A DNA stretch of 60,268 nucleotides, filler included, from Hausera hauseri (GCA_046269625.1; 10 parts of 10 records of this genome joined end to end with filler, not necessarily neighbours in it), one strand, 5' to 3'. Shown: positions 23,630 to 60,268, counted from the first letter of the whole stretch. Notes: generated from the sequence alone by a model not told the origin. A program made the numbers and translations.

Positions 23630-23746
23630 CCATCCACCTCTACATTGAGCCCAGCTTCCTAGTGTATCCTTTAAAATCTTTAAGGATGTCTTTATATTTC
23701 GTTCGATCTCTTCTAGATTTTGAGTCTGATGATTAATTACTATTAT

Positions 23747-24970: not shown

Positions 24971-25189
24971 TTTTTGCTGTTGTCTTTTATACTCTTAGTT
25001 CTATTTCCAATTGTTTTTTATGTGTTGAGGTAGTCTGTCATTTATATAATTGACACTTTATTTCTTTTTATCGTTTTTCTTAACTTCTGGTTCGCTATCC
25101 TCCGTTTCATATTCTCTATCCGATGATTCGTCTGACATAGCTGATGTGTGATCCTTCTTTTATTTATTTTTATTACTTGCTTTTGAGGG

Positions 25190-26030: not shown

Positions 26031-26157
26031 GGGTTCGTCCTCACTTAAATTTCTTAGATATTCTAGTCCGAAAGGCTAGTCTTTTTGTGGTTGGTAAACT
26101 GTTCCTCTTCTTGTGGTAATGGTGATACATTTTTAATCCAAAGGTCTTCAATCAATG

Positions 26158-26176
26158 ATCCCGGGTCACGGCACCA
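26158..26176 (-). promoter_or_regulatory. Primer-binding site complementary to tRNA-His, just after a 5' LTR end
   Basis: Minus strand ..TTGAACA aac TGGTGCCGTGACCCGGGAT, about 130 nt before the gag ATG. Confidence 0.85.
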
Positions 26177-27723: not shown

Positions 27724-27833
27724 TGCAAAGATAATTCGGTTAGTGTTGGAGCGGATTGTGAATGTGTTTGCGTTAAGAAATGTATGGTCGAAAGAGAGAC
27801 CATGTTCTACGTCCAGGCTGATGAGATCTCCTT

Positions 27834-28247
27834 TTACGGATGTTTTTTATCGGAGGTTTTAACTTGCAGTTGGCCAGTAACACAATAGAGATTCATGGAG
27901 TGAAAACGTTCATGTAGAATCAGTATGTCGGAAAGATAGAAGGAAATAGCCTTTGAAATTTGCATAAGGGCAATCGAACGATTAGCCATACTGTAGCTCT
28001 TTAAGTTATTTGGGATCTGTTGTGTTTGTGGATAATTAAGACTGATTGTAGTATCGTTGTGGCTTCTATAATATTGATTGGAGGGATTTGCGTTTATCAC
28101 GTGATTCTTTGCATTGTTATACCAATGCTTTGATCGGTTAATCGTCTGGATTTGGTGGAACGTTGATGAAGATACTATAAAAAACAAAGTCAATATGATT
28201 CCATACACGGTATTTAGACTCAACACAACGGTTACCATACACATCAC
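27834..28247 (-). CDS. Hydrophobic-leader ORF of unknown function inside the cargo region
   Basis: N-terminal hydrophobic stretch MVTVVLSLNTVYGIILTLFFIVSSS; same strand as the flanking cargo. Confidence 0.35.
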   Translation of the reverse strand: MMCMVTVVLSLNTVYGIILTLFFIVSSSTFHQIQTINRSKHWYNNAKNHVINANPSNQYYRSHNDTTISLNYPQTQQIPNNLKSYSMANRSIALMQISKAISFYLSDILILHERFHSMNLYCVTGQLQVKTSDKKHP

Positions 28248-28360
28248 TACGGTAATCGTTATGGTTAACGTGGGGTGAACTTTTAGACTAAAGAAAACCA
28301 GTGTTATTTGCTTATCTCAGTACTTAGGGTTGCGTTGATCGCAATCCCAATATCTAATTG

Positions 28361-30070: not shown

Positions 30071-30159
30071 ATTAAATTATACATAAATGCCTTTTAGAGG
30101 ACAATAATGTTGCTGGATTCGAACGTTCTAATATTTCGATCTTACTAAGATCTTCATCA

Positions 30160-37012: not shown

Positions 37013-38100
37013 TCAATGTTCTAAACAATAGTCATTCCTTAGTTGCTTTCGATGACGTGGACAAACAAGTAGATGATATACGCAATATAGGGAACGGCTC
37101 CACTTTTTGCAAACGTGACATCTTCGTGCTCGGTTGTGAACAACATTACCAACGGGAAAAATTACATCTTTCACTGGTACAACACATCCCATTTTGGCAG
37201 CAATTTTCTTTAGATCCTGAGATATTGTGCAACGTGGATGGGCCAATCTTTTTTCAATGTAGGACTTTGACAATTGAAAGGTCAACTGAAACAAAAACTG
37301 CTTTCTGTCACCAGAATAATCTCGCTTTCGCATTATTAAGAAAACATTGTAACACGAAACATCTAGAATATTGTAGTGAACAAGCATAGGACATCGCACA
37401 GTTTTTCTACGACATGTAAGGGTTTCTAAACAATCATCCAAACGATCAGCATCACTTTTGGTTCGGTTATCCCTCCTGTTTGTATTTAATGTCCGAAGCA
37501 ATGGTAAATGTTTCTTGAGAAGCTCTGTGACTAATGTATGCGATGTAAAATAACGATAGTTACAATTTCTTTCCCCAATCCATGATACGGTTCTGTCAAT
37601 TGCATTACAATATTAGTGCCTAAGTTTTTGTGCGGTTCCAAACGATTTCCTGCAGAGTGAATAAAAATTTGAAAGCATAACCGGATGAAGATTCACAAAT
37701 CCAAAAAATTTTCAGCCCAAATTGTCTTGGTTTGCGTGGAATGTAAGTTCTTCCTGCTATTCGTCCACTGTAGCCAAGTAACTGTTCATTTACGGTTAGA
37801 GAAAAATCAGGAACATAAAATCTTCTAAGGTTTCCATCGAACAAGGATATCACGTCCCTTACAGCTGAAAGTTTGTCATGTGTCTTTCTTTCTTCTCGGG
37901 TTCTTATGTTATCAAATCTCAAGGTTCTGAGGAAAAATTTAAAGCAGTTTTGTGACATGCATATTCTGTAAAAGGGACGTGCACTGAGAGAATCCCACAA
38001 CAAACTCAAATCATTGAAGTTATCTCTATCAAGTCCTACAGACAACATGATTGCAATACCAGTAATGTATTCATCATAAGAAAATTCACAATAAATATGC
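37013..38100 (-). pseudogene. piggyBac transposase, disrupted
   Basis: MSQNCFKFFLRTLRFD..DKLSAVR..LTVNEQL..YIPRKPRQFGLKIFWICESSSGY; YFTS; DRLDD..TCRRKTVRCPMLVHYNILDVSCYN; C-terminal Cys-rich RRCHVC..VCPRH. Confidence 0.9.
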
Positions 38101-38155
38101 TTATAGTAGTGTAAAAACGTCTGTTCTTTCCCCCCCGGGGGTCGCGAGAGGAATC

Positions 38156-38924: not shown

Positions 38925-41900
38925 GTGTAGCCATATGGCGGGAAAAATCTCGTCACTCATCTGCTAACCCCTCCAGTGCAACCACATTTTAGGTATTACA
39001 TCACCCCCGTGCCAAGATAAAGACTGTAAAGGGAAAAACAAACGCATGTGTCAGGCGTTGGATTCCATCTATAAATTTCTCCCTACTGTAAGTACTAAAT
39101 GTCACATGACGTGATCAGTTAGATGTTTCTGGCGCTTGTGGAGTTGTTTGAGGGAGAGATGATGCAGATTTTGTGGTGTTTTGGGAGGATGTTTTATGAA
39201 GATGTGAAAATGGAGAAGAAACTGAGAAGGGAAAATGGTCACGCGAAGAAGGCGAAACTGAAGATGGAAGCGAATCGTGCGATAAAGGTCACACGACTGC
39301 AGGCTGATTGTGTGGATGTGCAGGCGATGACGGCGAAGTAAGTGGTAAAAGAACAGTAGACGGAAGTGAGCATAACTAATTGTGACGTGTGAACGATTGG
39401 TGCGACGGATCAACATCATCGAGGAAATTGGATGATGGCTCGAGGGGGAAAAAGTTACAGTTAGGATTTGAAACAATGCTGTTATCCTGGTCATCGTCAA
39501 CGAAGAAATCTGGCTTAAGATTAGAAATGTGTACATTTTGAAGTTTGGCCTTTCGTAAAATAGTAGCGGTGTGAGAAGAAAGGTTTAGCAGTGTGTAAGG
39601 GCCAACGTATTGAGGCTGAAAACCAGAGAGTGACGGATCCTTAAGCTACACAAACTTGGCTGAGTATAAGTCCTCTGGAATATAGGATTTGTCTTTATTT
39701 ATAAGAAGGCAAAATGCGTTTGAGTTGATATCTACAAAGTGAGACTGTGCCGCACGAATAACATCATCTGACAGACTTGGATCGAGATTGGAGAGCTCAA
39801 AACGGCACGAATTGGTGTCCCAAAGAGAGCAACAGCTGGAGCACAACCTGTGGTGGTGAATGGCGTGTTGCGCCAACCACGTAGGACAAGCGGAATAATT
39901 GAGGTCCAGTTATGATTGCTGTTTGCCAAGATTTTCAAAGAAATCTTTATGGTGCGGTGAAATCTCTCAAGAAGACCATTTGCTTGGGCATGGTGCGGCA
40001 TCGTATGGAAATGGGCTATCCCCAAGTGATTTACAAGAGATTCAAAAAGGTCAGCTTCAAATTGAGGATCCTGGCCCGTTATGATGTGACGTGGTGAACC
40101 AAAATGGCTGACCCATATCTTGAGAAATGCATCTGCCACAGAGTCGGTGATGGTTGATCGAAGCGGAACGGCTTCCGGCCAGTGAGAAGCTCGATGCATC
40201 ATTGGTAGGTTATATTGATAGCCGTTGTCGGATGGCAAAGGACCCACAAGATCCAAATGAACGGTGTCAATAGAAGACGTGCAAGGAAAGTGATAAAATG
40301 GAGGTTTGAGATGTTAATGAATCACAGTAGGGCACCATGGGCACCACAGTTGACATGCTACACATCCCTTAACCCTGACATGTACATCTGTACACATAGT
40401 CGGCTATACAACATCGCACTGCTGTAGACGAAATATAGCTTTTGAATCCGGATGATAGAGTGAAAGTGATTGAAAGCTGTCTTTGTAGCGATGGAGCAAG
40501 AATGATTTGCTTGCTGGTCGAGTTGGATGTGTCATAAGCGATGCCATCGATGATTTCAACAGATTTAAAAGCTTGAAGAATGTCAGATGATGGCTGATTA
40601 CTTCTTAGGACTTCAGATGAAAAAATTTGCTGAACTGTAATTGAAAAAAATAAACTAAACGTGGATAAGTATGATATCTGTCGTTCTTGTCTCGGCAATG
40701 GATGATTTAACGTCATTATATGAAGTAGAGGCATATGGTCGGTTTGGATGGTAAATTGTCGTGACAGAAGCAAGTGCTTGAAATGCTTTACCGCTAGAAC
40801 TACATCCAAAAGTTCACTATCGAATGTCGAGTATCGACTTTCTGGTTGCGTGAGCTTTCAGGAATAGAATTCGAATGGTTCATCGGCACCATTATATATT
40901 TGGTATAATATCGCACCAGTGGCTGTGGTGGAGGCATTGTAATGAATATTAGTTCCGCGTTGGGTTTTGGAAAGGCCAAAATTTCAACGGTTTTCAGACC
41001 TTCACGAAGGCGATCAAATTGATTTACTAGATCGGAAGTCCAATGGATTAATTGTCTTTTCTTCCCAAATGAGAAGTGTGCAAAAGGTGCCGTTAGTTCG
41101 GAGCAGTGTGGCACGTATTTGTGTATGAAATGCAATGTCCCTCGAAAACTCCTCATATCGGTAGTAGTAGTTGGCAAGGTCACATTTTTTAATTGTTGCA
41201 AACGATCAGGCTGGGGCGAATGCCCTTCGGGGGTACTTATGTGGCCTAAGAAGTTGACGCGTTTCTGGAAGAAATTGCAACTGGCGAAATTAACTTGCAG
41301 GTTGCCTTGACGCAATCTGTGAAAAATAATTCTAAGGTGCTCATGATGTTGTTGGATGGAGCTGTAAGCGACTAATATGTCATCTATGTATGGGTGAGCA
41401 AAATCGAGACCGCAGAAAACGGTGTCAATGTGGCGCTAAAAGGTCTGGGATGAGCTACGCAAGCCGAAAGACATGAAGATGTATTCATAAAGACCAAATG
41501 GTGTGATGGCAGCAATTTTTGGAATGTCATCATGGGCATCAGGAATTTGATGGTAGGCTTTGTGCAAATCAATGGTAGAATAGGTATTGGTGTTGTTGAG
41601 GCTATAAAGAATATCATTAATGAGTGGTAGAGGATAGGCATCTGTAATAGTTAGATTGCTTAATTGTCGATAGTCGCCACATGGCCTATATGTGCCATCT
41701 TTCTTTACCACTTCATGAGGAGGAGAAGCCCAGGGAGAAATCGATTTCCGAATGATGCCAGACCTTTCCAGTTCATTAAATTCCTGTTCCACAGCTTTAC
41801 GTCTGCGTGGCGACAAAGGTCTGACCTATTGTTTGATAGGTCTCTGATGGTCTGTTACTATGTGATGATAAGTTGTGGATAGATGCTTGATATTGACGTC

Positions 41901-43400
41901 CCTTTTAACTATGCGAAAGTAAAAACGTTGTGACGTATGATTTAAGATTGGAGTATAGAGACAAGAATGAATGAGGCATATCATTAAAGCGAACAGCTCC
42001 AGTGATTGACGGAAAGCAACTGGCATCGCTACTGTCGACGCCTAATTTAAATTTTTGTTTTATAATAGATTTATGATTATCGTTCATAATTGAAATATTT
42101 CCGACTTTATTGGAAGTTGTTTTATAGATGACGAGGCGTTCAACATGTTCACAGATGAGTGCAATGAATTGCTCTCTAAGTTGTCTACGAGACACATGTT
42201 TGGAGTTGCAATCGAGTTCCTGCTTAAAAGACAGCTGTATTTTCATTCGACCAATAGATCATATGCGGCAAGAAAATCTAAGCCTATTATGGGAGATTTA
42301 ATGTTGGCCACGTGGAACTCCCAGACAAACTTATCTGGCAAGTTGGCGAATATGAAAGTCAATTCTGTGGTTCCTGCAACGTGCAACGGTTGACCACTGG
42401 CAGTGAAAAGCGATGGACAGGAAATCATAGTCGATGTAGGAACGAAGGAGCGGAAAGGCAGCTCCTGAGTCTATCAGGAAGTCGATATGTGAAGTATCTA
42501 TGCATAACAGTGCAGCTTTCAACAGAAAGACTGCAGAGGCGGTGTTGAAACGGCCAGAAGATTGAGCGATATTGCCTGCGCCAGAAGGTGCCGTAAAATC
42601 TGGCGGCATTATTAGTTTTTTGAGGGATTTGGAAAAAAGGAAGAAGAAGAAAAACGAGGGGATTTATCATTGTAATGTTTACAACCAGGCACACATAATC
42701 TAGCCTTTGACTAAAACTTATTGTGATAGACGCAAATAAGGTTGTCCACAGCGTACCTGTCGCTGTAGAACCGACAACCCAAAAAGCATTTCCCATCATC
42801 CCTTCGAAAGCGCGTGTGATAGAAGCAAGTCATGCGTCCTCCAGGTGAAATGGATCGAGTAGAGTGTCTTAAAGTGCTTCTCTCCCTTGAAGGTCTAGTT
42901 TCTCTTCGTCGAAGCCCATTAAGATTATTTAATTGGGTAGTAATGGCCGAAATGGACTTCTGTAACTTGTCAAACTGTTGCTGCATCATTTGCAATAGTT
43001 AAGTAAAAAATGTTGTGTCTGTAGTTGGAGCACATGTGGTTGCAGCCCAATAGGAAGAGAACTGTTGGTATGAAGAATCTCAAAGGATTTGTCAGCCATT
43101 ATTGCCATTTTTTCGATAGCAGTGAACTCGTCGACAACTGTGAGCAAGGCTCTGATTGAGGTGGGCAAAGATGATGAGAAATAATGGCAAATTAAATCCC
43201 CTAGAGCGCTATGCTGCAGAATGGCTGTTTGGAGAAAGTCGGATGGATTTTGGCTTCCTATCGCGTGGTCGTTAAAATGCTTTTGCATTATATTGTCAAT
43301 CGAAGGATCTGTGACATGCAGCACAGCTTCACAGAGTGTCTCGTGCTGTATCGAGGATTGTAGCAAGTAGGGGGAAGGGAGGACACGAGGCCAGTATAAA
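38925..43400 (-). mobile_element. Decayed Ty3/gypsy retrotransposon, CsRn1/Kabuki-like (gag-PR-RT-RH-INT, PPT, LTR start)
   Basis: Gag CHCC-type motif CFYHTRF..KCFLGC; protease FLIDSGA; RT SPWASP..RPCGDYRQL..DAYPLP..IDLHKAYHQI..TPFGLYEY..FGLR; RH TDHMPL; INT DLVGPLP..WPEAVPL..QANGLLERFHRT; YVGPY; PPT GGGGGTGA then TGTAAT at 39000. Confidence 0.88.
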
Positions 43401-43438: not shown

Positions 43439-43560
43439 AATCAATATTTTATGTAGGAAATTTTGGCCTCATATTGGTTTCATTATTCCAACCCCCAAAA
43501 AATCAATATTTTATATGGGAAATTTTGGCCTCATAGTGGTTTCACTATTCCCACCCGAAA
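43439..43560. repeat. Two-copy tandem repeat of about 62 bp downstream of pPolB
   Basis: AATCAATATTTTAT..GGAAATTTTGGCCTCATA..GGTTTCA.TATTCC twice; its tail also occurs at about 10762. Confidence 0.75.
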
Positions 43561-43680
43561 TTTGATATAAATACGCCTGCTTAAGTGTCACTTGTGAAAA
43601 ATGTGTCAACATTGACATGTACAAAACATAAGACAAAGACGTAAGTACAAATATGTATTAAAATAACAAATACAAACAAC

Positions 43681-43864
43681 CAAATATTTACACAATAATG
43701 TCCATAGGCGACACTTTTGTTTTTCGATATCCAGTCTCGTTTGTCGTCGAATGGATCTAGAGCTTTCTTTTTGGTACTCATCGTCATCAGTTGATGGTTC
43801 TTGGTCCCAATGCGTTCTTGATCAACAATTGTCCCACATCTATTCTCATACGCTTGCAAGTAGT
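43681..43864 (-). pseudogene. Polinton/adintovirus pPolB extreme C-terminus (contig-truncated)
   Basis: QERIGTKNHQLMTMSTKKKALDPFDDKRDWISKNKSVAYGHY. Confidence 0.85.
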
Positions 43865-43964: not shown

Positions 43965-44850
43965 CGAAGGAATTCAGGGCCGAGTCTTAGGAGAAGTGCT
44001 ATATACATACAAATGTAAACGATTAGACTTACCCCTGATTACTGGTACTCCTTGCTACTCTGAGATACCTGTTAAGTATAATGAAGAAATCCGATACGTT
44101 CAACCGATTATCCGAGTAATTCTGACACCACATACAATACCCACGAAAATTCAAAATTGTTCAGCACTAAATGAACCATTTATTAAGTACGACAATCAGG
44201 ACCTTTGGGTTAGATTACCGGACCGTGAAAGAGTTAAAGAAACACCTAAGAAATTGACGATGGCAAATTTGAAACATGCAATTGAAACCAATATGTTTAC
44301 GGACGTGTCCAAATCCGCATTATACAGCAAAAAAGAAATTGATTCATTCGTGAAGTTTCTAGCATATCCTCGACAGAGAGAGCAAATAGTAAATCGCGGA
44401 ATATACCGGGTAATCGACGACACAGCCGGAGAAAGAAAATGGGACCGGTTATGGACACCTGACGCCTATATTAAAATCGTTTCAAATCTGTGGTATAAAA
44501 TGTGGGGCGGATTCCTGAAATTCGGCCAAGTAGCTTCTGGGTTTCTGGCCATATACTTTATCGTACAAACTTTGAAAGCCTGTATCAATTCCATATTAAA
44601 TGCCTATGAGATTTACAACTTAACGGGACTATCTCTAAGTATAATAGGTGCTCTATTTTGCCCACTTGGTAAAATCATTAAAGCTTACTATGAAAAACAA
44701 TGGCGAGGTAAACTAGAAAAACATGTTGATTATAAATCGAAAAAGCCTTTCCAAGGGATACCCCGTCAAGTTCCGATAACGACAACGCCCCTGGATATTA
44801 TCCTACCACAGGGATTACAAAGGATACAAAAAGAAAATTCAGGTTTATGA
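43965..44850 (+). CDS. Env: C-terminal half of a chuvirus-type / gB-like fusion glycoprotein (5'-truncated)
   Basis: GRVLGEVLYTYKC..CYSEIPVKYN..QPIIRVIL..ALYSKKEID..LAYPRQRE..KMWGGFLKFGQVASGFLAIYFIVQTLK; paralogous to 21556-22510. Confidence 0.85.
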
Positions 44851-45379
44851 AACCAAAATGGAAAAATAGACCTAAATCACTTGTTGCGCCATATGAGAAT
44901 TAAACAGTGCCAATTTGCAGATTACCAATATTAATAGACCTAAAGGATCCATATGGAAAAATGGAGGAGTATATAAAATTACTTAATTTACCAAAATACT
45001 CCCAGGAAGAGATACGTCAGTTCGTTATCACGCGAAACATGGAAAACAATTGTGTAATATTACCTACATCACCTAAATTAGGCATACCGCCTCTTATACC
45101 TTATCACAAAACAACTCGATTATTGAAAAATCAAGTAGATAGAGAACCCCATTTAACGACCTCAGAATCCGTTAGTAAGCAAAACATAACATTACCACGT
45201 GGAAGTTGCTACCCAGACTTGACTGAACTCAAAGAGGAAGAGAAAGGAGTGGAAAACAATGCTCAATCTTTAGAAAGTTTAGCGGTTATATTATCAACCG
45301 ACACTATCCGATATTGTTCAGATAGTTACAGCTTGATGGAACCACATATAGGTAATCATAACGATGTATTAACGTTTCT

Positions 45380-48300
45380 CGAGTTGTTACGGGATAATCG
45401 ACCTCACACCATAGTTTACTTTGATAGCTTTGAACTGAATTCTATGGTTGACACTGGAGCTAACGTTGCATTAATAGCAAAACATGCAATTCCAAAAGAA
45501 TTACAATCTCAAATAAAATTGGCTACTAAAGGCTCGCCTGGCACTACTTTGGCTTTTTAGCAATGCAGTAAACCTTATGGATACTGGAAAAGTGAACCAT
45601 ATATTTTTGGACAGAGAGTCAAGAAAACCTTTGATGTAATGCTTACCTAGGATCCGCGATGCATTTTGTGTATGAATGTGTTGCGAAAATTGGAAGGAGT
45701 ACACATAAACTTACAATCGGGATCAATTTGTCCAAATAATGAAGATATACCCCCTAATTATGCCAGAACAGATATCTGGGTAGGACATGTTGAGAAAATA
45801 CCACCCAATTCTAGAATGGTTATACATGCCAGAACGATATTCTCAGACAACAGCGTAATTGAATTTGTGCCGAAAACTCTTCAAAATGGGCTTATATTAC
45901 CACATTACTGCGTTAAAGTACTCGGTGGTACCATTCCCCTAGAAGTTCTAAATCCCACTCCAAGACGTGTCACGATATTCCCTAAAACGAAAATTTGACA
46001 AGCACTGGAAACTACACGCCAAGAAAAATACAACAATAAAGTTGTGACCATTTCAACAGCGGAACATAATAATGTTGAAGCCACACTTAATGTCGTTCTT
46101 ACTAAAGTCAAGAAAATTTTATCAAATGAATATCTAAGGAATTTCTCAGACCTCATTTGTCAGTACCTTGATATTTTTGCAAAAAACGAAACGGATATCG
46201 AACGAACAGATTTGGTCAAATTTAGATTGCCATTTATGCTCGACCCCACAACCGGAAAAGAGGTAGATCTGTTACAACAATCCATACCAAAATTGTACCT
46301 TCCTCCAAAAGCACTCCAAAAGGAAGTTGAGGAACAAATTCAGGCAATGCTCAAAAAACGTATCATAGAACCAAGTCAATCACCATGGCCCTCTCATAGT
46401 TATGGCCAAGAAAGCTAATACAAATAAACATCGCCTGTGCGTAAATTACGTCACCTTAAACAAGCACTTAATGAATCATGCTTACCCAATTCCGTGAATA
46501 CGAGACATCATTGATGAACTAAAGGATTGTAAATATTTTACCACATTGGACTTACAAAGTGGGTTTTGGCAAATTCCCGTAGCTGAATAGGATCGGTGGA
46601 AAACCGCATTGAAAACCCATACAGGGATCTACCAGTTCACACGCATGCCATTTGGCTTAAATGCGGCACCCACTTTCTTCCAACAGTTCATTCGTCTAGT
46701 ACTAAAAGGAGTGCGAGGGTTATCGTACATTGACGACATCCTCATTGCGTCCAAAACATGGTCTGCCCATTTAACAAAATTGAAGGAAGTATTCGACTGA
46801 ATCAGACTTGCTAAATTGAAATTAAACCCAAAAAATGTGAATGGTGTAAGAAGGAGGTTAGATACCTGGGAATTGTCGTTTCCAGTAAAGAGATATATAC
46901 CAGCCCTGAGTTAGTAACTAAAATACTGGAATACCCCCTCCAACCAATGTGCATGAAATGAAAGCATGGTTAGAATTGGTAGGATTTTATGCCGCCTTCA
47001 TCCCTGACTGCAGAAATAAATCAGCCTCAATATAGGTTATTACGGAAAGACCAAAAATGAGAATAGACCGAAGAGAACCAGAACATTTCGATGAAATTAA
47101 AAAACGAATGGTGTCATCACCAATATTGAGGTACCCAGATTTTTCATTACCATTCATTCTAAAAACCGACACTAGCATTAAAGCTATTAGTTTTATATTA
47201 GCTCAACAAAATCCAGAAGAAATAACTCAGTATGTAATCGCCTACGGCGGACGTAGCTTGAATAATGCAGAGCAGAAATATTCAACTACTATTAGCTATC
47301 CGTGACGAATTGCGACATTACGAATATTATATCTACCGTCATAAGATTATAATATTTACTGACCATAAGGCACTATTATCTTTACGCTCAGACAACAGAC
47401 ACGTATCAAGTCGACTCCAAAGATGGAAGTTGGAACTTTTGAATTATGATCTCGAGTATCGATATCGTCCTGGCAAAGAAAACATGGACTCCGATGCTCT
47501 GTCAAGAATGCCATACGAAAGAATAGTAGCCGCAGCTTATAAATCAACCGATAACGAAAGTGATAAACATCTGAATGAGAGAATCATTAATGATGTTACA
47601 AGAACAACGCCAAATCCAAATACGAAATATCGAGACCTTACAAAACCAAGATCCCTTTATTGTTCAAATCAAACAATTAATCAATGGGCAATTAGTTGAC
47701 TCGGCATCAAATCACATTCAAAAATTTTATGAAAAGAACCGAGTGAATTTAGAAATCGAAAATGGCATTTTACGACTGAGAGTCGGAGAACGAAAACTGG
47801 CCATGGTGCCGGCACCGGCCATCAAAGCCGTCATGCTACAAGAACATGATTCACACTTAGCTGGACATCCGTCTTTAAATAAGACTTTAAAGCGTATAAC
47901 CGCTAAATATTATTGGCCTCAAATAAATAAACATATTGAAGGATGGGTACGTTCATGCAAAATGTACGCTACAAGAAAAGATAGAGGATTTCGTATCAAA
48001 CCGTTTTAGGAAGCTTACCTGAAGCTCGTAAGCCAATGGAATTGTGCGCAATGGACATCTATGGGCCCTTCCCAACTTCGGACTCAGGATACAAATACAT
48101 ACTGTCGCTTGTTGACTACTTCGCTCGTTACGTTGTACTAGTACCATTGAAAAACATGACTAGTAGTACACTTGCTGAAGCCTTTTTCTATAAAATTATT
48201 GCCGTACTGGGCACCCCGAAACAGTTGTTGACTGATCGTGCACCTTACTTCATTAGCGAGCTCTTTGAAAAACTATCAAAAATATTCCAATGAAAACATT

Positions 48301-48900
48301 TATTAACGACATCATACCAATCTCAATGTAATGGTATGATCGAAAGGATGAATCGTACCATTCAGGGTATTCTTTCTACAAAGGTAGCACAGGACCAAAA
48401 AGATTGGCTCAATCATCTGATAACTACGGCTTTCGCAATCAATACTACACCTACCAAAAGTACAATCATTCCCCTTTTGAGTTAATGTTCGGACGAGCGC
48501 CTTTGATGACATTGGATACTGAATTACTGCCATCTTCCTTGTTAAATAGTGATCATATGGATGAACAGTACCAGAATTTGCTTAAACGTCTTGAATAGTT
48601 TCAACGCGAAGCAAAGGAGTTTGAAGAGAACTACAGATCCGGATATAAAAAGCAATTTAACAAAAAATCACGACCACATACTTATAAAATTGGAAATTAC
48701 ATAATGGTCCATTACCCCGCGGCGAAGAAAGGCAAATAGTTAAAATTAACACACACAGGCCAAGGACCGTACAAAGTTGTCGATGTGCGCCCACAAACAC
48801 TTTTTATTCAGAAAGGGCCCGACAAATACGAGGCTGTATCTGTTCAACGAGTAACCCGAGCACCTACTCCATACAACGATTTCATACACGAAACAGATCT
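45380..48900 (+). pseudogene. Ty3/gypsy pol (PR-RT-RNaseH-INT), disrupted
   Basis: MVDTGA; IIEPSQSPW; LDLQSGFWQI; RMPFGL..YIDDILI; YPDFSLPFILKTD..AEQKYS..TDHKAL; HDSHLAGH..YYWP; MDIYGP..VDYF..LLTDR..NGMIERMNRT; GPYKVV. Confidence 0.93.
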
Positions 48901-49575: not shown

Positions 49576-50208
49576 AAATATCAGACACAAGACAGACAAA
49601 TGACGCGCCGTGTGCAGAAAACAATACAACATTGATAAAATGTCGAACAACTGAGTGAATAAAAACAGTCACGAGTGTAGGGGAAGGTAAAGGAGGGGGG
49701 TCCTAACGTTGATAATGAAATAAACACAAATATGACTTTGCGACACTAGATCTTCATCAGGTAACAACACACCATGAAACATACAATGAATCCACTTTTA
49801 GCTATCCTCCGGCACCGCGTTTTCGCAGCTCTAAGAACAATAAAAATTTGGAAAAGGTATCCAAGCTCCGCCGGCGGCTTTAGATGACTTCACGTGTCTT
49901 TGTCGCGTGTGTATTATCGAGATTTTGGGAGCTTTGCGCATAGTTTTGTTACATTAGTTTTGTGCTTCAGAATAACATCCCGGGTTAGTGCAAATTATGC
50001 TGGCAAATGTATATAAAAGCTACAGTGATTTTAAGTTTAGTGTGGCTTAACCAAGAGATTAACACGCGGGTATGTATACATAAGTTCATCGCCATCCTCC
50101 GTATTAAAGGATCTTAGCTCAGTTTACGAGCCTTCGTTGCACTGACCTGGACCCAGAATGCGCAGATTTAGCTACTGTATCAAGGGGCTTTTAACGTGTG
50201 CGTCATTA

Positions 50209-50371
50209 CACACGGACTTCGATCTCACTACATGTCAGGGAAATTGTCAGAGCACACAGACTTCGATCTCACTACAGGTCAGGGGAATTGTCAGTGCACA
50301 CGGACTTTGATCTCACTACAGGTCAAGGGAATTGTCAGAGCACACGGACTTCGATTTCATTACAGGTCAGG
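50209..50371. repeat. 44-bp minisatellite, about 3.7 copies
   Basis: Unit CACACGGACTTCGATCTCACTACAGGTCAGGGGAATTGTCAGAG-like, starting at 50209, 50253, 50297 and 50341. Confidence 0.95.
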
Positions 50372-50829
50372 AGAATTTACTGCTAGAGGATACAGGGGAA
50401 ACAGTATGTAGCAGGGTGACTAAATGAGATATGGACATGGCATGTTTGTTTGGCTTCATAAGGCAAACTGGCATGTTTCTGCAAGAAATGTCAGTTGACT
50501 GCAGGAAGAAGTTACCTGACCATTGGCCAACAAAGCCATTCACCTGCACACATTCGGGCTTCTCATTCTGGTCAGATGCAGTTCAAGTTCAGTTTTTGAG
50601 AAAGAACACACAGACTTTTAGTCTGCCACATAGCCCAATGAAAGCCGCAGGTAATACCCGCTGGGTGTTTTGTAGGGTTTTGTTATGATGATGTTCTATG
50701 GTTAATCAATAAAGAGATGGAACAGGACTCCTGACAGGGTTTCCAGAGTTTTTATTGGTGACCCCTGCCTGAAGAACTAATTCTTCCGTGGTCTGGGTTT
50801 GAATGGAGAGAGTGGAAAGTGTTTCAATG

Positions 50830-51300
50830 CATTGGTCTGTTTTATAGTTCCTTGAAGTGTTCCATCCATCTATTCATTTGTTTTCCTAACCCTAAAATCT
50901 GTTTTCCTTCTTTGTCTTTTACACATTTTTTCTGATCTCCAAAATTTCCCTGATAGTTTCTTAGTGGAGTCATATAACTCATTCATGTTGCCTTTCTTGG
51001 CAGCTGTTTCTGCTTCTTTTACTAGGCTGTTGATGTATTTTCTTTGTTTCTCTGTATATTTCAGTGCATTCTTCCCGTGCTTTGCTTTCTTTGCTCTTGA
51101 ACGACTACTGTTTATCGTTGCCTTCAGTTGTTTTCGTGCCTGTATTATTTTTAAAGTTTCAACCGATATCCATTCTTTGATCTGCTATTTCTTAGGTCCC
51201 ATTATGTCTTTGCAAGTTGATGTTAATGTTTCTTTAATTTTGTTCCGTCTGGTGTCTACTGAATGTTCTTCCTCAAATAAATCTTGTAGCACATGGAATT
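50830..51300 (-). mobile_element. RTE-clade non-LTR retrotransposon fragment (endonuclease-RT linker)
   Basis: KEWISVETLKIIQARK..SRSRAKK..YINSLVKEAETAAKKGNMNELYDSTKKLSGK..WMEHFKEL. Confidence 0.75.
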
Positions 51301-51687
51301 TATTTTTTCTTATGTGTATAGCAGTCTGTAATAATCAACAAATGTTTGGATTATGTTGCGTGGTTCTGTCTGTAAATTGACGTTAGTGTCTACAATTTGT
51401 ACTATCCGTTTGTTGCGTTTTATGTTTTTGTTCTATTGCCATGTACTGCTTGTTAGGTATTTCCTGCGTGATTGCGTTTGACATAGTGCGTAAGAGTGAT
51501 CATTGAAAATCGTACTGTTTGTGTTGTTCGAGTTCAATTTGTAGTGTAAGTAAATGCGTTGCATTTTTGTCTGTTTCGAAAGTGTAATTGCTTCTTCCAA
51601 GATATGTTCTCTCTCTCTTAATTTTGTCTACAATTAGTTTGGTTGTCTCGGGTATTGTGTTTTTCATGTTTTATTTGTCTTGTTCTG

Positions 51688-52782
51688 TGTTGTAATCAAC
51701 AAAGAACAATTATTATTACATATTTTATTTAGCAGTACTAAAATGCATGTAATATTGTAAAAATTCTCGGCTCTGTACTTTAATATGTAATATGTAGCAT
51801 GCATGCTTGTCCATTTTTGTGATGTTTTTCTTGTTTGTTTTTTGGCGTTGTGGTTGTTGTTTATATAGGGCTTTTATTTTTTGTAGGTCTATTTCAGACA
51901 AAGTGGGTGTCATGTTACCTAATTTGGTAACAGTTGTGGTTTGTGGGTGTTAATTTAAAATGTAGGGGTTAGTAGTTACTTTTTTTAGTAACTGTATGTC
52001 TAGCTTTTAAGCTGATTCATCAGTTACTCTTATTTTTGTAATTTCTGATTTTTGTAATTATTTTTAACCTTAACCCAACATACACATATACATACACATA
52101 TACAGCCAATAGCGTGTTTTTGGAATTATTCGAACTTGAACATTCTGTGAGGCACAACAGATATAACTTGTTTTAGAATTGATTAGTCAATAGTATTTGC
52201 ATTTAGAAATTTGGAAAACATTAATAAAAGTATCAAAGTTCATTTTATTGAAATTGCAATCGTAAATATGAAAAGTTTTTGTCGAATTTATGATGTTTGT
52301 TTATTAGAAAATACAATGAATGGCAAGAATTGTGTTAAACTGAAACTATATGTAAAATAACGATAAAAAACTTTAAACATATTTCTTTATCAAAATTTTA
52401 AATGAAGTCAAATTTAATCCAGTATTAACTTCAAATAAAATATTGAATACATTTTGCTAAAATCTCAAAGCATTAGTGCGTAAAACGTATGTAGCTAGAA
52501 TCTCAAAGCATTAGTGCGTAAAACGTATGTAGGCGTTCGAGGGTTACTATTCACTTGAAGCATTTGAGTTTGCAGATAAATCAATGCACAATTTCAAATT
52601 ATCATGTTGTATGTTAGTAGGCTTGTTAGTAGGCTTACTTGAAACATCCGTAAAGTATTGCGTTCAATAAGCTTGAAGTTAAAGATTTTTTGCATGGCAT
52701 GTACCGTCTGTATCGAAAGTCTGTGTGCATGATACAGAAATTTTTGTAATTTTAACCTTATCCCAACATCTTCCTCCCCTTA
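51688..52782 (-). mobile_element. PPT (52769-52782) and LTR-like region with duplicated start
   Basis: Minus strand AAGGGGAGGAAGA then TGTTGGGATAAGGTTAAAA at 52768; near copy TGTTGGGTTAAGGTTAAAA at 52080; TATATAAA near 51865, AATAAA near 51728, candidate end ..TACAACA at 51688; internal 38-bp direct repeat at about 52456-52532. Confidence 0.65.
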
Positions 52783-52932
52783 AAAGAGATTTTTCTTTAT
52801 TGAAAAATCTGGCGTAAATCCGATTTCATTTTTACAATTAAAATACAAAAAAAAATAAAAAAGTATAATAAATACGAAAACACAAGTATTATACATAAGA
52901 GAAGAATAGCAGATTAAAACAGTTTTATGAAG

Positions 52933-54984
52933 TTACAGTTGGATCACACATTTGTAATCTCTTTCTACTTCTTCTTTCGTTGTTGTACTGTTGGAAAGTC
53001 CGTAGAGATTTTCTAAAATAAGTTCGTCTTGTTTGGCGAACAGTAACATTTTGATTTTCTGCTTGCTAGTGTTTTTCAGCTTTATCATTCTGCCTTGCCG
53101 TGGTTTTGGAACTGGTATCTTGTCTACTTGCATTGGGATAGGTTGCTGAGTCATTATTGGGTCCTCATTACGGTTTAATAGTGTTTCTACATTATTTCCG
53201 ATCAGTGCTAAATGCAGTGTGTTGCATTTTAAGTTCCGGTAAACAAATCCGATCAACTGTCCGTGAAGTTGATTTGGCAAAATTTGGTTTTCCTGATTTT
53301 GAGTCGTTTGTGGCTCAAAAAGGAAATTGACATTAATTGTCTGGAGTTTTTCTCCGTATATCAACATAGATAGCTTGGTTGAGGATACTTCCTTTTTTGG
53401 TTGTATTTCATTTATTGCTTTAGGACATCTGTTTTTCAATTGTTGAATAAGACTCATTTTTGCATTTGAGTTTTCTTTTGGTTGTATTATTTCCAGTTGG
53501 TAGTTTTCGTGATATTTTTCTGGTATTACTTTGAAATCGGCATAATCGATAAGATTATTTGATGGTGCTTCCCATTCAAATTCTACTTTTTCATTAGAGC
53601 ATGTGTTAGTTAATTTACCATGGATGTCCATTATCGTTTGAATTATACTTTCCGCGTTTTTGGGAAAGTCATATGTGTATCCATATACTCGCGGTAATTG
53701 GGTCAAGTTAATTTTGAGATTTTCCTCCTTGAATCTAGTTTTGGTATTACTTACAGCCAACAGGTCGATCACTCCAAATAAGAACTGTTCTGGAATTCTT
53801 AGTGCTTGAATAATTATTCTGGTATTTGCGCTGATTACGGTATATCCGAACAAGTATTTAATCACTTCACTTCTAACTTCTTCTTCATCTTCTGATTGCT
53901 GAATTATCGAGAGAGAGAGCCCGTGAACATGCTCATTGGTATTTGATATTTTCTTTCTAGGATTAATGTAGGCCTGATAGATTCTGAGTCTTTCCTGATT
54001 TGTGATGATGACTTCAACAGGCAGTGGTTCGCCATTCATGCCATACGCTAGTGAGACTGCTAAATATCGTTGATTTACAGCTTTTGTTAGCTGATAATTA
54101 TTTATCTCCTTCGTCGGCCTTTTATAAAATATCGGTTCCATTAGTCCCATATTTTCTTTCATATATTGACAAATTTCGACTCCGAGTACCACTGGTATTT
54201 GTAGAACGCGGAAGTGTATATTAGTATGGAACATTGCAGACTTTAATTTCATCGTTGTCTTAGGTCCGATTGTGTTTATTCGTGGATCAATTCCGTCGTA
54301 ATTTTCGTTCTGAGCTCGCCATTGTATTCTTCCACAAGCAACGTGTATGAGGATTTTTTCAAATGGTGGTTCCGGCTGAAACATTTTGGCGAAGTCAACA
54401 TCATATAATGGGCTTTCTAATTTAATAATTCGAAATAATCTTTCATTTAAGGTGGTTGTTTTTAGAGAGTTATCTAAATATCGACATTGGGTATACATTA
54501 AATCAGCTGAATCTTCCATAAGTTGAGTTAATTTGTTGTAGAATTTTGAGGAATAAAGATTGTTATGAGTATCATATATTGTGACAAATTTCGGATACAT
54601 TTCTGCCCATATGCGATTCTTCAATCGGTCTTGTTCAGTTTCCTCTAGATTTTTGGTAATCTGTTCTTCCAATCTCATTCTTTTATTGTCAGGTAAGTCT
54701 GCATAAGTGAAAGATTTTCTTCTTATTTCGTTTTGAGTTTCAAACATTTTTGTATTTTCCAGTCTCATTTTTGGGACAGTAGTGCTTAAAATTCCTCTGC
54801 TCTTTGTGAATGGTTGAATTGGATTCTGGAACGTGAAAGAGGTGGTGCACTGATTAGAAGGTAGTATAACCCTTCGTTTAGGGTTAGGGACTACAGATAC
54901 GACTGAACTGTCACTGTCGGATCCATCTAGGTCTGGATTGAACTGAGTTTCGGTTGGTTCTGGAATATAAGTTGGTGTATCCAT
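52933..54984 (-). CDS. Intact LTR-element cargo protein with a central pseudo-DEDDh (REX/ISG20-like) exonuclease domain
   Basis: Uninterrupted ORF (711 aa from 55068; likely start MDTPTY at 54984); YLAVSLAY..IYQAYINPRKKISNTNEHVHGLS..EEVRSEVIKYLFGYTVISAN..GVID follows the DEDDh pattern; ends about 150 nt before the PPT. Confidence 0.7.
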   Translation of the reverse strand: MDTPTYIPEPTETQFNPDLDGSDSDSSVVSVVPNPKRRVILPSNQCTTSFTFQNPIQPFTKSRGILSTTVPKMRLENTKMFETQNEIRRKSFTYADLPDNKRMRLEEQITKNLEETEQDRLKNRIWAEMYPKFVTIYDTHNNLYSSKFYNKLTQLMEDSADLMYTQCRYLDNSLKTTTLNERLFRIIKLESPLYDVDFAKMFQPEPPFEKILIHVACGRIQWRAQNENYDGIDPRINTIGPKTTMKLKSAMFHTNIHFRVLQIPVVLGVEICQYMKENMGLMEPIFYKRPTKEINNYQLTKAVNQRYLAVSLAYGMNGEPLPVEVIITNQERLRIYQAYINPRKKISNTNEHVHGLSLSIIQQSEDEEEVRSEVIKYLFGYTVISANTRIIIQALRIPEQFLFGVIDLLAVSNTKTRFKEENLKINLTQLPRVYGYTYDFPKNAESIIQTIMDIHGKLTNTCSNEKVEFEWEAPSNNLIDYADFKVIPEKYHENYQLEIIQPKENSNAKMSLIQQLKNRCPKAINEIQPKKEVSSTKLSMLIYGEKLQTINVNFLFEPQTTQNQENQILPNQLHGQLIGFVYRNLKCNTLHLALIGNNVETLLNRNEDPIMTQQPIPMQVDKIPVPKPRQGRMIKLKNTSKQKIKMLLFAKQDELILENLYGLSNSTTTKEEVERDYKCVIQL

Positions 54985-55098
54985 GATGCTGAAAAAGAAT
55001 GAAATAGTATAGCAGGTCGTTTTTAACGGCCTGTTCAAAGAGTAGGTGGTTACTCTTTGACTTTTCATTTGATATTTGTGTTGGTGTAAATCTATTGG

Positions 55099-55198: not shown

Positions 55199-58100
55199 GT
55201 TTAAATTCCAGGCATCGACAGGTGAGTTTGAAAGGCTGGAGGAGCCTGTATAATCCCCGAGCTCCTTGATCCAATCTCCGAGGCTTCCCGCCGTTTTGTC
55301 ATAGAATTTTAACGGGGACCAGTCAACGGATAACTTTGCGGCGCAGAGCAACGCCTTCAGACTATTCTGCCTTATTGTTTCGAAGGCATCTTCACCTTGC
55401 TTGCTGAGGTTCACTGACGGTATCGATTTTACCATGAAAGACAGGTGATCTTCAACCTCTTGGTGTCTAATGCACGATTCGCTAGCCTTCTCTATTCTCT
55501 GACATGGATGGATGATCTCAGCACTGGATGCCGACACAGTAAAATCGCTGTCAAGTAGTCTCAGTGTATCGATTACACCGCAGCGGTACGCGTATTCAGG
55601 ATACCAGTTGTCCCCGTTTCCAGACGAAGAGTTCCTATCGCCTTCCGGGCATGAAGAAAAGTTTTTGTCCACTCCCCAAGATACGATATCACTTGATATT
55701 ATAAAATGGTCGCCATATTTTATCTCCTCTATGGTAGCATTCTTTGTTTCTGTAGATCTCGGGTGTATTTCCTGAAATTCGAAATCACGAGGAGATAAAT
55801 CGACTGCATCATGTGAGGGTTCTTCTTGTTTGAATCTCTGAGCATTTTTTTCTGAGAATTGTACCATGCCAGTGGCTGATCGAGCCCGTGGTTTACGCCC
55901 TGAAGGAAAGTTTCCGTTATTTTCATCACCACTTTGGAGGAGACAATTTTCTACCCGCATGTAAGAAAATTGTTCATTTGACTGTGGCTTTTTGTTATGC
56001 GTAGAAAGATCTTTAGTGGAATCTGTCGGGTTTTTTAGATCGAGCCTCTTTTTCTGGAATTCATTAGCTATTCTTCCATGTCCCCGAAAGCAATGCCCAA
56101 AAGTTCGCTTATTTTTAGAACACTTTGGTCGTGTAGACTCAGTCAACGGATTCTCGCTCTTTTGCTGGCTATCCGCGTCGTTTTGCAACGAACTGCAGTA
56201 AAACGGGACACCATTTTTAATCGAATGTATATTTCTTCTTTCATGCAGCTGCAGCGGCTGCTCGGGGGTGATTATCTGATAAAAGAGATCAATCACTCCC
56301 TCCCGGTACACACCAGACTCGTGTCTGTGGCAAGCCGAGTTTGACCGCGACCTTGGAGCACTAACAACGGTATAGTCGCCGAGCGTATAATCTTCGTCGT
56401 CCTGCGGTATTAGTCGTCTGTAGTCTTGAAATTTTGGTGACTGTCTTCGAGTATCGATATGTTGAGCTGACCGTGTTTTAATGCTGTAATCACGATCAGA
56501 AGGATAGTCATCGTGGTCAGGACCACTTCCACCCTCGCAGTACTGTCGGTTCATGCTTTGAACGCCACGATGTCTACCTGTGGTGAAACGGTTGCAGCCG
56601 TGACTTTCCGGAAACACTGTGCTATGTGGGGTCAAGAGATCTTCTTGCTGGTCAAGACTTCCGTGATGGTAGAAGGAATCCTTTCTTCTGTCCTCATACG
56701 TCACCACTCTTTGTATGTCAATGGGAGTACTTCTGCAGCTTGACGAGTTATGACTTTCGTCATGGAAATCATGACGTCGGGACGTCTTTCTTGCGCAACC
56801 CATTCTTATGTCGGATTCATTTTCCGATTTCTGATTTCTGCGCAGCCCACGTCTACCAGCTCTCACCCTTTCATCTGCATCTTCTTCCAGATACTCACTC
56901 TCAATCTCCCCACCAGAGGCTGGTAACGTATTCTCGCTGTTTTCCTCATCGTGCGAGTCTCCTGTTGAATTTCCCAGAGTGGTCGAGCGACTTTCCTGGG
57001 TTTCTGCGTGAGAGTAAATCTTTTTCTGGAGTCGTGCTATTTCTCTCCCACGGGAACCTTTTTTATTTTCACGCATTGTTACAACAGATTCCCTATAAGT
57101 GGAGCCTTGCCCGAGGACTTCACTGTTTCTCGATTCTAAGCTGTGAGATGATCTGGACGAGGTGCTCTTCACTCCATGACTCTTGAATCTTCCATCGGCC
57201 GAGTTGTATGGAGTTACATGAGCTTTCTCTCCGCTGGATAATTGTCTTCCAGTGTCGTATTTAAAAGATGACGACCGGTAAGAAAGACGCCCGGAATTAC
57301 TTTTTCTACTGTCAACGTCTTCATAATCCGAACTTCTAACAGATCGATCTTTCATTGATTTAATTGACCCAGTTTCTCCGTACTCGTCCTGGAGTTCACT
57401 AAACCTCGACTCTCTGCCGCGTCTCTCGCGGCAGTGCAGGGTGGCTTTTAACCGCTTCTGATTGTCATAGTCCGACTGTTCGATTGGTGATTGCTTAGAA
57501 ATGCTGACAGATTCATCGTGACTGGTGACGTCGTCGTCGTCATAATGACTATCATAATTTTTCGACCCGCGTAGGCTTCGAGACCTTGGCTTAAACTCGC
57601 AGAGAGATCTGTCATCATGTTCTGACTGAAACCCGTCACTCGACTCTCGGCACCGATATTCGCTGGGCTGGGACGAATATATAGGCTTTGACTGAGTTTT
57701 GTTAATGAAATCTTTGCGCGCATCTTTCATTTGTCTTAGCCCCGAATGTTCTTGATATCCTTGACTCGATCGTCTTTTGGACGATCGCAAGGATTCCATC
57801 AAGCTTGGCGTTGCTCTCATTTCCTCGGTGTCCGAAAATTCTTTGTTTTTATGCGATCTCTTTCTTGATCTGGTGTCTCGATCATCAACACAGCCTGCCA
57901 TTGTCACTTCCGTGCTAGAGCAATCAGTATTTGGTATTGACGAAGGCTTGGAAGATACAACGCTAAGCGGACGCTCTGCTCCTTTTCTAACTAGGCCGTG
58001 TTGATCTTGGATGGATTTAAAAAGTGGAGTTCCTTCCAAGATCGTATTTCTATCTTTTTCAAAGCTTACAGGATCGATATTCGGGGATCTCTTTGCGCCC

Positions 58101-60110
58101 TTTTGCTCGGAAGAGTTTGAAATAGATCGATTCATCTCGCCCATTTCTGTGACTCCATAAGTTGTGCTGTCATCTTGTCTGCCTCCATGAAAGCCTTCAG
58201 ACAAATGTCTCGTCCTCCGGTGTTCGTGATCAGATTTCGTAGTGTCTGCTGACAGCTGACCCGAGGCTGACCGACCCTGATAATAGCGACTACTTAGCGA
58301 AAATTCAGAAGTCGCTTGGTCATGTTGTCGCTGAGATGATACCTCGCAGGCCGATCTTTGCATGCCTAATGCTGGCCTACCGACGTCGCAGTACTGTCCT
58401 CTCTTGAAAGAGTCACAGGGCGATGGGCATCTTTCAGTCAGAAGTGGCAGACTACAGTCAATTTCTCTCTGTGATGAGGGGTAGGAGTCCTTGATCCTTT
58501 CGTAGTCCCCGGGCTGACAAATGCAGTGAGCTGTTTCACTCAAGTCAGTCGCACCCATCTTCACTGATGTTGTTAATTCATTATCTAAACTATCTGGATG
58601 TTCGCCGGATGATTTTTCTGCACAGCCCATTACGTTCAGTACGACAACATTGCCAGGTGAACGCATTGATGTGCATACCTGGATACTAGTTGGACTTCGA
58701 ATTTCATATTTTACTGTTATTTGCATATCTTGTGTTGTTTCCGACGTAGCATCTTTGCATGTTTCATCTCCACGTCTTATACCTTCTTCCCTTCTGACTA
58801 GCTGTATAGGTTCTTTACTGGAGACAGTTCTAGCAGGGATTTCAGTGTATACTGGCTCCTCCTTCTTCGTGGTTCTCATGTCTATCGGGCGCCCAGACAC
58901 ATATTCCTGCGATCTCTCCCTTAATCTAGTTTTACTCGTCCTTCTGCTTTCAGTCACTGTAGGTGTTCTTCTCTCTTGTTGTTTGTCATCTCGTGTGATC
59001 TGGCCCCCGTGAGCCTCAAATTCTTTCTCGGCAGGTGATGCGGGCAGTCGGCTGTCTTCAGCAGCTGGCTTCTGCTCACCGATAGACTGCCTCCTCTCGT
59101 ATTGTAGAGTCTGTTTAGAATCACTTTCAGCCAGAGTTTCTACGTGTTCAATGTCTTCTCGAGGTATGCTTTCAACAAGAGATTCCTTTTCAGACTGATC
59201 CAGCACTTCGTTCTCATCACGTAAACTGTGTTTCTGAGACATTTCAGCTTCAGCAAAGTCTCTGCTGGGAACCGCCTGTGGCTTGTTGACTCGCTCCAGG
59301 GATTGCTTGGCCTGTTTAACAAATTGCTTATCAGAAGCTGTCACAGATTCACGGCTATCAGTTTGCGATTTTTTATCCGAGCCGGACGACGAGCGTTTTC
59401 TTTCAGTGAGAGTTTGGACTGCAGGTAAATCTGACCGCTGGCTCATTTTTCGTTCAGAAGTTTTCCTAGATACGATCTCAGGTGTTGGTTTTCTATCAGA
59501 AGCTTTCACAGATGTTCTACTGCCACGCAATCGATCTTCGTCTGGCTTTACCTGCTGAATAACTTGTTCTTTTTGTTTTTTGTCTGGTTCTTTTACGGGG
59601 CGATCACTTCTTCTACGGTTTCCTTTGCCGGAGACAGCTGGCTGCTTTTTGACGTCACTCCTTCTGGACCTCGATTCCGATCTGCTGTCTACCAGGGAGT
59701 GCTCGTCCGGTGGCTCTGTCGACTGACTGCTTTCAAGTATACGATCGCCATCAGACGTGATTGTCGACTGACTGGCTAAAATGTCTCTTTCAATTACAGG
59801 CGTCTGCCGCCGCATATCCGCCACGCGTTGCCTTTCACCAGTAACGGCAGACTGTCGACCATAGGACGTGGAGTGTCTGTCGGTAGCTGACAAGAAACGT
59901 CTGCCGTGATTAGTTTGTCTTGATTTGTCCTTGGCGTCGGACCTGCGTGTGTCCCTTTGCCGGAATGACTCTACAGAGTGTCTTCTGTTGTTGTAGAATG
60001 CCGGAGTTCCGTGCCGCCTTGGACTCGACCGCCGGTCCTTTCTGGTGACAGGCGGCTCATTCCAGTCATCACATACTTCGTATGGTTCAGGGTCTTTTAG
60101 ATACGCCAAG
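55199..60110 (-). CDS. Giant exon of a host gene encoding a Ser/Arg/Glu/Asp-rich, probably disordered protein (3'-truncated)
   Basis: About 4.9 kb open frame; candidate acceptor TTGTTCTCCAG ending at 60111; no recognisable domain; visibly more GC-rich than the other contigs. Confidence 0.7.
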
Positions 60111-60268
60111 CTGGAGAACAACATGAAGATTAATTTAGACAATACAAAGTTTTTAAAAATTAGTTTGTTCTGCTGTTTATGCAATTACCTACATCCAAAC
60201 CAGCTGACACTTTCTCCATGATATGATTTAACCCTTATTTCTTCACATTTGGTTCAAGGTGGGAGGGG

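Follow-up and report, generated by a model that had tools for sequence, protein, structure and literature searches.

A DEDDh exonuclease-like domain without catalytic residues, fused to a dioxygenase/cupin-type barrel, in relatives of Gypsy element cargo genes

Introduction

The closest described elements are the GAG-ENV-POL errantiviruses with an HSV/gB-type env, which have been reported from Nematoda, Bryozoa, and Platyhelminthes (Chary and Hayashi, PMC13524379). The elements analyzed here resemble them in having env before pol, a class III env (PF24664), a tRNA primer site, and a Ty3/gypsy pol, but the two loci with flanks described below (L001 and L002) add a membrane cargo after the integrase and a separate 3′ ORF. 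The terms exonuclease, AlkB, and DEDD do not occur in the text or the seven supplement files of that report. Planarian Burro elements are also similar, with env in frame between gag and pol, a very long polyprotein, and accessory domains; the domains listed for them are, however, RING, MATH, BIR, BCL2, ankyrin, and dUTPase, and not a barrel-DEDDh fusion (PMC6431247).

DnaQ-like exonucleases are among the known accessory domains of LTR elements (PMC6338049). An ORF3 of the DEDDy type has been described for the bdelloid LTR retrotransposons Juno and Vesta as well as for Athena elements (Rodriguez et al., PMC5408684), and it shares with the present case a DEDD-family exonuclease behind pol. The rotifer protein is described as RNase D-like with the invariant DEED intact, in elements without env (PMC5408684), whereas here an ISG20L2-type DEDDh domain is fused to a barrel, env is present, and one branch is site-dead. 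A large Gypsy element of Phalaenopsis carries an AlkB/2-ODD ORF that has kept HxD/E-H and RxxxxxR and demethylates m6A (PMC9289625). It is likewise an AlkB-fold domain as extra cargo, but in the present case the motifs are absent, the similarity is confined to the fold, and the domain is fused to a nuclease fold. Insertions of AlkB and exoribonuclease domains, some with unusual substitutions, have also been reported for nidoviruses (PMC11848433).

Among host proteins, the DEDDh nucleases ISG20, ISG20L2, and SDN1 give the best sequence and structure matches, but they lack the additional N-terminal barrel and, in contrast to the branch in the window, have catalytic residues. DEDD folds without catalytic residues are known from Maelstrom and EXD1, which bind RNA (cited in PMC5408684), and from Exuperantia and the PXL domain of PML, a pseudo-exonuclease that binds nucleic acid (PMC13659232). 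As described in these sources, they are host genes with demonstrated nucleic-acid binding, whereas the domain analyzed here is element-borne and known from sequence and models. Membership in the PXL, Maelstrom, or Exuperantia families was not supported by any test run; at most, the mode of action would resemble theirs. No description of a barrel-DEDDh fusion or of a dead branch was found in the full-text literature searched, which did not extend to reports in repeat databases, the majority of subscription journals, or supplements on bioRxiv.

Results

The window, i.e., the whole stretch of 60,268 nucleotides of Hausera hauseri DNA that was analyzed, consists of 10 pieces of 4.4–9.5 kb each with N-TTAATTAATTAA-N spacers between them, and many decayed mobile elements are spread across it. 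The original prediction named three copies of a DEDDh-like domain. They lie on separate pieces (5066–11129, 20700–30159, and 49576–55098), and a single locus is ruled out because each copy is on a different piece of the joined window. An open frame was found for one of the three copies only. This ORF (52933–54984, minus strand) runs for 683 codons without a stop, which has a chance probability of 3e-22 at the window's composition. The encoded protein of 683 aa (P0001) has a disordered N-terminus, an AlkB-like barrel, a site-dead DEDDh domain, and a C-terminal tail that is modelled poorly. It matched no Pfam family at E ≤ 0.1. The mean pLDDT of the AlphaFold2 model was 50, while the two cores mostly reached 70–90.

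A search of P0001 against 1.84 billion representative proteins yielded four relatives (P0002–P0005; E 1e-8 to 2e-4, identity 23–26%). Two further relatives, P0006 and P0007, were found with P0005 as query, and the alignment of P0005–P0007 led to the two loci with flanks, L001 (99% to P0007) and L002. The analyzed family thus comprises eight members, P0001–P0007 and the protein of the L002 ORF. All eight were used for the trees; the broken window copies were excluded and represented by P0003 and P0004, and the cluster mates P0008–P0010 were not used. A word-based protein search with P0001 and with alignment A1 as queries returned nothing; it is insensitive in this case, because the known relatives also escaped it. 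Matches were scarce in other collections: 0 of 76 metagenome stretches with P0001, 2 of 332 with alignment A4, and, for viral contigs, 0 of 14 with P0007 and 0 of 173 with A4. The phage search gave no match, Atlas feature searches gave no result, and no locus with flanks was found for P0002–P0004 in the contig searches. Four sequencing runs were matched with shares of 0.82, 0.43, 0.07, and 0.05; no RNA run was among the matches listed.

The DEDDh fold of the ISG20/ISG20L2 type covers residues 304–469 of P0001 (53578–54075, minus strand) and is indicated by structure and profile matches, in agreement with the fold originally proposed. The AlphaFold2 model matched ISG20 with a Z of 16.4 (rmsd 3.0, 146 residues); the next best structure had a Z of 12.6, Exuperantia (5l80) was among the matches, and Foldseek gave an E of 1.3e-6. 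When built from just the four site-dead proteins, a profile matched DnaQ (1.1e-6), PolC (2.4e-6), and ISG20L2 (4.5e-6), and the value for ISG20L2 reached 3.4e-20 when all eight members were included. The DEDDh domain alone matched TIGR01406 dnaQ with 2e-4, far under the model cut-off, and the comparison of profile A3 with the single E. coli sequences of AlkB and DnaQ was not significant (probability 0.1 and 1.9, respectively).

An active DEDDh nuclease is defined by D-x-E in Exo I, D in Exo II, and H-x4-D in Exo III. In P0001 the five catalytic columns contain A309, S311, I391, K442, and I447. The respective residues are A, N, M, K, and C in P0003, the Exo III columns of which adjoin an insertion and are less certain, yet no His or Asp is nearby, and A, N, T, L, and L in P0004. 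The sequence of P0002 has A and N in Exo I and stops before Exo II. All five columns are therefore non-canonical in the three complete dead proteins, and those of Exo I also in the truncated one. In contrast, D, E, D/E, H, and D are present in all four intact members, P0005, P0006, P0007, and the L002 protein, the latter with Glu at Exo II. Having the Exo III His and matching RNase_T (PF00929), the intact relatives are not of the rotifer DEDDy type. Two more acidic columns are also gone in the dead proteins. The predicted loss of the catalytic residues was thus confirmed, but the Exo I register had to be moved by two residues: instead of S/N-x-A/G, the dead proteins have A-x-S/N at the place of D-x-E. 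This correction (Asp corresponds to A309 and Glu to S311, not to S311 and A313) was made because the gap-free family alignment and the alignment with SDN1 agree. We are highly confident that canonical catalysis has been lost and that the protein has the two-domain anatomy described here.

Several acidic residues in the dead proteins could mediate a weak or altered nuclease activity in place of the lost ones. Glu is fixed in column 324 in all four dead proteins and in none of the four intact ones, D366/E369 and D407 have been kept in the dead branch, and in P0004 and the copy near 27 kb an acidic residue lies one position before the Exo II column, which is a caveat on the loss. However, the alignment places E324 at the Glu in the IEIG strand of DnaQ, which is not a DEDD residue, D366 is common to the intact members as well, and neither the two Exo I carboxylates nor the His remains. 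Such a rewired enzyme is highly improbable.

Upstream of the nuclease domain, residues 129–278 of P0001 (54151–54600, minus strand) are predicted to form a double-stranded beta-helix of the 2OG-Fe(II)-dioxygenase type without HxD/E or RxxxxxR. The original prediction had overlooked this barrel, as well as the sister branch with intact sites and the fusion to a RING finger. Folded alone, the barrel had a pLDDT of 76.8. The VIA Z values were 11.5 for Ofd2, 11.2 for ALKBH6, 11.1 for ALKBH7, 11.0 for OsALKBH1, and 10.3 for prolyl 4-hydroxylase (140–145 residues); ten dioxygenase chains gave Z values of 10–11.5 with 136–158 residues aligned. The identity to the structural matches was only 3–10%, and no profile match to E. 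coli AlkB was obtained. The methods differed in their ranking: the top four VIA matches were Ofd2 and AlkB homologues, while Foldseek ranked seed-storage cupins first, and an independent Atlas model of P0005 also matched cupin-type barrels (TM 0.47–0.56). On these models, the barrel is assigned to the 2OG-Fe(II) dioxygenase/cupin superfold. A nucleic-acid substrate is not implied by this assignment, because prolyl hydroxylases match almost equally well and cupins top the Foldseek results.

The HxD/E motif was found in one of the eight members (the L002 ORF, near the N-terminal edge of the barrel, unshared), and RxxxxxR in three, in none of them at the last strand and at unshared places. Both motifs being scarce and unshared, the barrel does not appear to be a canonical dioxygenase in either branch. 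An active AlkB demethylase was rejected on the basis of this motif scan.

Six columns are invariant in the barrel (Y149, N172, L174, K175, R182, and G218), compared to five in the nuclease domain, for which P0002 is truncated; in addition, H214 occurs in seven of eight members and E/D270 in all eight. This distribution, together with the faster divergence of the dead domain, would fit a protein of which the barrel is the working part and the nuclease domain a passenger, a folded spacer that is slowly eroding. Yet the model of the dead domain retains the complete DEDDh fold across 146 residues, and no relative consisting of the barrel only was found within the limited length range searched. We regard the passenger role as unlikely.

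In the tree of both domains, dead and intact proteins were split on one branch with a support of 97/98. The split was retained in the tree of the nuclease domain with DnaQ as outgroup (93/94; DnaQ falls among the intact proteins) and after removal of the seven motif columns (78/90). Long branches meet in the tree. With the barrel alone, the four dead proteins did not come together (1% of the bootstrap trees), but the AU test did not reject such a group (p 0.23). In Exo I, Ala and Asn/Ser are common to the dead proteins. A single loss of the catalytic residues would be the simplest reading.

As originally proposed, the domain was retained in divergent lineages: the site-dead lineages are 24–29% identical in the DEDDh domain, with 57% for P0002 and P0003, compared to 49–62% among intact proteins, which indicates faster divergence after the loss. 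Open frames of 683, 870, and 447 aa persist among dead proteins at 24–27% domain identity. The maintenance of three long open frames and of the fold argues for selection with a changed constraint after the loss; the faster divergence would also be compatible with relaxed constraint.

The presence of the same domain in the three window copies was verified with a profile built without the window ORF, which scored all of them (best values 103, 96, and 80 bits). Direct tblastn from the intact ORF to the other two copies was weak (E 0.002 and 0.035), and relatives bridge the copies. A profile of the four site-intact relatives gave 51.7 bits with the intact ORF and 11.9 and 5.5 bits with the copy near 27 kb, compared to 1.4 for the best of 20 shuffles; the copy near 7.5 kb (−4.0) was under the best shuffle. 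Two of the conserved patterns that had been proposed, AV(S/N)(L/Y) and P(I/V)E, were found in all three copies, but IxPRKK is missing from the 27-kb copy and G(V/I)xD(L/I)L from the 7.5-kb copy.

The second copy (26961–28193, minus strand) comprises the barrel and the dead DEDDh domain and is matched by P0004 with 44–57% identity (tblastn, E 1e-114); it is broken by frame changes near 27845 and 27433, the latter with 12 unmatched P0004 residues. The third copy (7011–9258, plus strand) is heavily decayed, with many stops and frame changes. P0003 matched it over most of its length (tblastn, E 7e-59 and 2e-45), including barrel, dead DEDDh domain, long tail, and the C-terminal RING region. In both broken copies Exo I reads A-V-N and the Exo III residues are absent. 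The second and third copies are dead as genes.

The genomic context was revealed by the relatives. At L001 and L002, the gene lies 335–960 bases 3′ of a polyprotein of more than 3000 aa, which comprises a class III env, proteases, RT, RNase H, integrase, and a membrane-anchored tail, with env before pol. This position directly behind the polyprotein identifies the gene as 3′ accessory cargo of env-before-pol Gypsy elements of the errantivirus type. The cargo status that had been predicted was therefore verified by way of these two relatives, while the association with LTR elements within the window held for the 27-kb piece, was suggested for the 53-kb piece, and was not seen for the 7.5-kb piece. 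The polyproteins of L001 (2–9040) and L002 (1–9624) are single open frames with two or three protease-like stretches, L002 has an extra hydrophobic segment between the proteases, and coiled-coil-like ORFs flank the nuclease gene.

On the 27-kb piece, the end of an integrase followed by a beta-rich membrane-anchored cargo lies directly upstream of the second copy (28364–30076, minus strand; L001 polyprotein 2511–2575, E 2e-7). A primer-binding site (26165–26176, minus strand) is complementary without mismatch to the final 12 bases of tRNA-His(GUG), the 12-mer being taken from supplement file 2 of PMC13524379, and is the sole match in the window. It is followed on its 3′ side by gag fragments (25438–26075, minus strand), of which 25438–25701 matches Ty3_capsid with an E of 0.0032, below the Pfam cut-off, and 25803–26075 matches no Pfam family. 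A broken class III (gB/G-type) env is present at 21616–23471 (minus strand; PF24664, E 3e-27), with identities of at most 40–43% to the L001/L002 env in the main segments. Frames without a family lie between gag and env (23750–24742, minus strand), a slot that likewise holds unassigned sequence in L001 and L002. On the piece at 20700–30159, the 3′ end of one element is thus followed by the primer site and by gag and env of the same type, and no pol comes after env; either neighboring elements have an LTR in common, or the assembly has collapsed here. A decayed related element with env before protease, RT, RNase H, and integrase is located on a different piece (43966–48811, plus strand). At E ≤ 0.01, BLAST revealed no similarity of the membrane cargoes of the window pieces to each other or to the corresponding cargoes of L001/L002.

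On the piece with the intact ORF, a pattern scan located a polypurine-tract-like run with a subsequent TGT some 150 bases beyond the stop codon (52766–52781, minus strand), which is probably the start of a 3′ LTR. The pattern occurs five times in the window on both strands; a purine tract after the gene is absent in L001, L002, and the other two copies, and no second LTR copy or paired LTR was found on any piece of the window. A 34-base repeat (85%) of sequence after the purine tract is present at 52048–52081 and 52740–52769. On the other side, inspection of the sequence revealed a pyrimidine tract and AG four bases 5′ of the ATG (54989–55004, minus strand), and T-rich runs and AG also precede the ATG of L001 and L002 by 2 and 0 bases, respectively. 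In P0001 this is a possible splice acceptor for a subgenomic mRNA, in DNA that is AT-rich.

Matches to gag, env, or pol were found neither on the 5.5-kb piece of the intact ORF nor on the 7.5-kb piece. The lack of such matches next to the sole open copy would be expected for a domesticated host gene that was derived from an element and is no longer mobile. However, only 114 bases precede the ATG on its piece, so a pol could not be seen; in addition, the purine tract and TGT follow the stop codon, and the located relatives are in elements. Domestication is very unlikely.

A RING finger was found in P0003 (PF00097, E 2.6e-7), and one site-dead sub-branch thus has, by its Pfam match, an added predicted RING finger. 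PML also has a RING finger. A Pfam search did not find a RING in P0001 or P0004, and the tails of P0001 and P0003 did not match. These distributions bear on the possibility that the dead domain mimics a host ISG20L2/REXO4-type nuclease to its partners, or is the substrate-binding part of a RING ligase, and does not bind RNA at all. In favor of a protein-binding decoy or adaptor, the charge of the DEDDh domain is neutral, with a net value of 0 to +2 in dead and −1 to +4 in intact proteins, Glu 324 is confined to the dead branch, the RING is shared by P0003 and the 7.5-kb copy, and ubiquitin- or apoptosis-related cargo is listed for planarian Burro elements (PMC6431247). A RING was, however, not found in two of the dead proteins, and a PR basic patch has been kept in 8 of 8 sequences (database proteins and P0001). 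A purely protein-binding role is somewhat unlikely.

The window contains several further features. At 11230–12392 (plus strand), an open frame of 382 aa that includes a RING finger ends directly in a purine run and TGT at 12377; from this arrangement, it is probably a further 3′ cargo gene belonging to an LTR element. Two consecutive frames of 994 and 359 aa with one stop between them (16237–20298, minus strand) contain ankyrin repeats (PF12796, E 5e-15) besides beta-rich segments that recur and hydrophobic stretches resembling membrane segments; they did not match the cargo of L001/L002. A separate decayed Gypsy pol lies at 39735–41912 (minus strand; RVT_1, E 4e-9), and a low-complexity open frame of 1662 codons rich in Ser, Arg, Asp, and Glu, without a Pfam family, at 55199–60184 (minus strand) on a piece with 46% GC. 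A tandem repeat of a 44-base unit (3.8 copies) is present at 50209–50377, near what we take to be LINE-like ORF fragments at 50873–51184. Two piece ends, 10800–11129 and 43558–43864, share a repeat of about 86–93% identity. Fragments at 1–4965 and 37016–38153 (minus strand) presumably resemble, by eye, a Polinton DNA polymerase and a piggyBac transposase; Pfam gave no such match in the two frames tested.

Discussion

The anatomy of the protein and its place behind pol can be combined in the following model. The gene is accessory cargo at the 3′ end of Gypsy elements with env before pol in an animal host, which would be an invertebrate judging from elements of this kind (PMC13524379). It would have obtained its nuclease domain by capture from a host ISG20L2/REXO4-type gene, and its product would be made from a spliced subgenomic RNA. 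The site-intact branch would trim the 3′ ends of RNAs. In the dead branch, the two domains together may form a non-cutting clamp that binds the RNA of the element, with the barrel reading bases or a base modification and the emptied nuclease pocket holding the 3′ end. The clamp would shield the element RNA from 3′-5′ decay by the host or recruit partners, and in the RING sub-branch it may have been converted to a ubiquitin-ligase adaptor.

This model was chosen because the parent folds act on nucleic acids, the barrel is basic (pI 8.5–10.2 in all eight members), and there are precedents for RNA binding by DEDD domains without catalytic residues. Arguments against it are that the dead domain does not carry more positive charge than its intact counterpart and that two of the three window copies have decayed. 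The results did not connect the protein with piRNA, and the RNA-binding decoy role originally proposed received no support from the tests run. We favor the shielding RNA-end clamp or adaptor over its rivals, but only tentatively. A more specific version is decidedly unlikely: two disarmed host enzymes would act as a reader, the barrel taking a modified base and the dead nuclease holding the 3′ end, to capture marked element RNA or host small RNAs and block decay or silencing, with the RING form ubiquitinating a host factor. If true, an animal retrotransposon would encode an anti-silencing factor for which an active and a dead form occur naturally and can be compared.

Little is known about the accessory genes that Gypsy elements carry in animals, or about the means by which such elements withstand RNA decay and silencing by the host. 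The earlier examples of nuclease cargo in rotifers and AlkB cargo in orchids were separate reports of apparently active enzymes, while here both folds occur in one protein. Taken together, site-intact, site-dead, and RING-fused forms occupy the same genomic slot, and therefore a switch from enzyme to binder would be testable with unaltered natural proteins.
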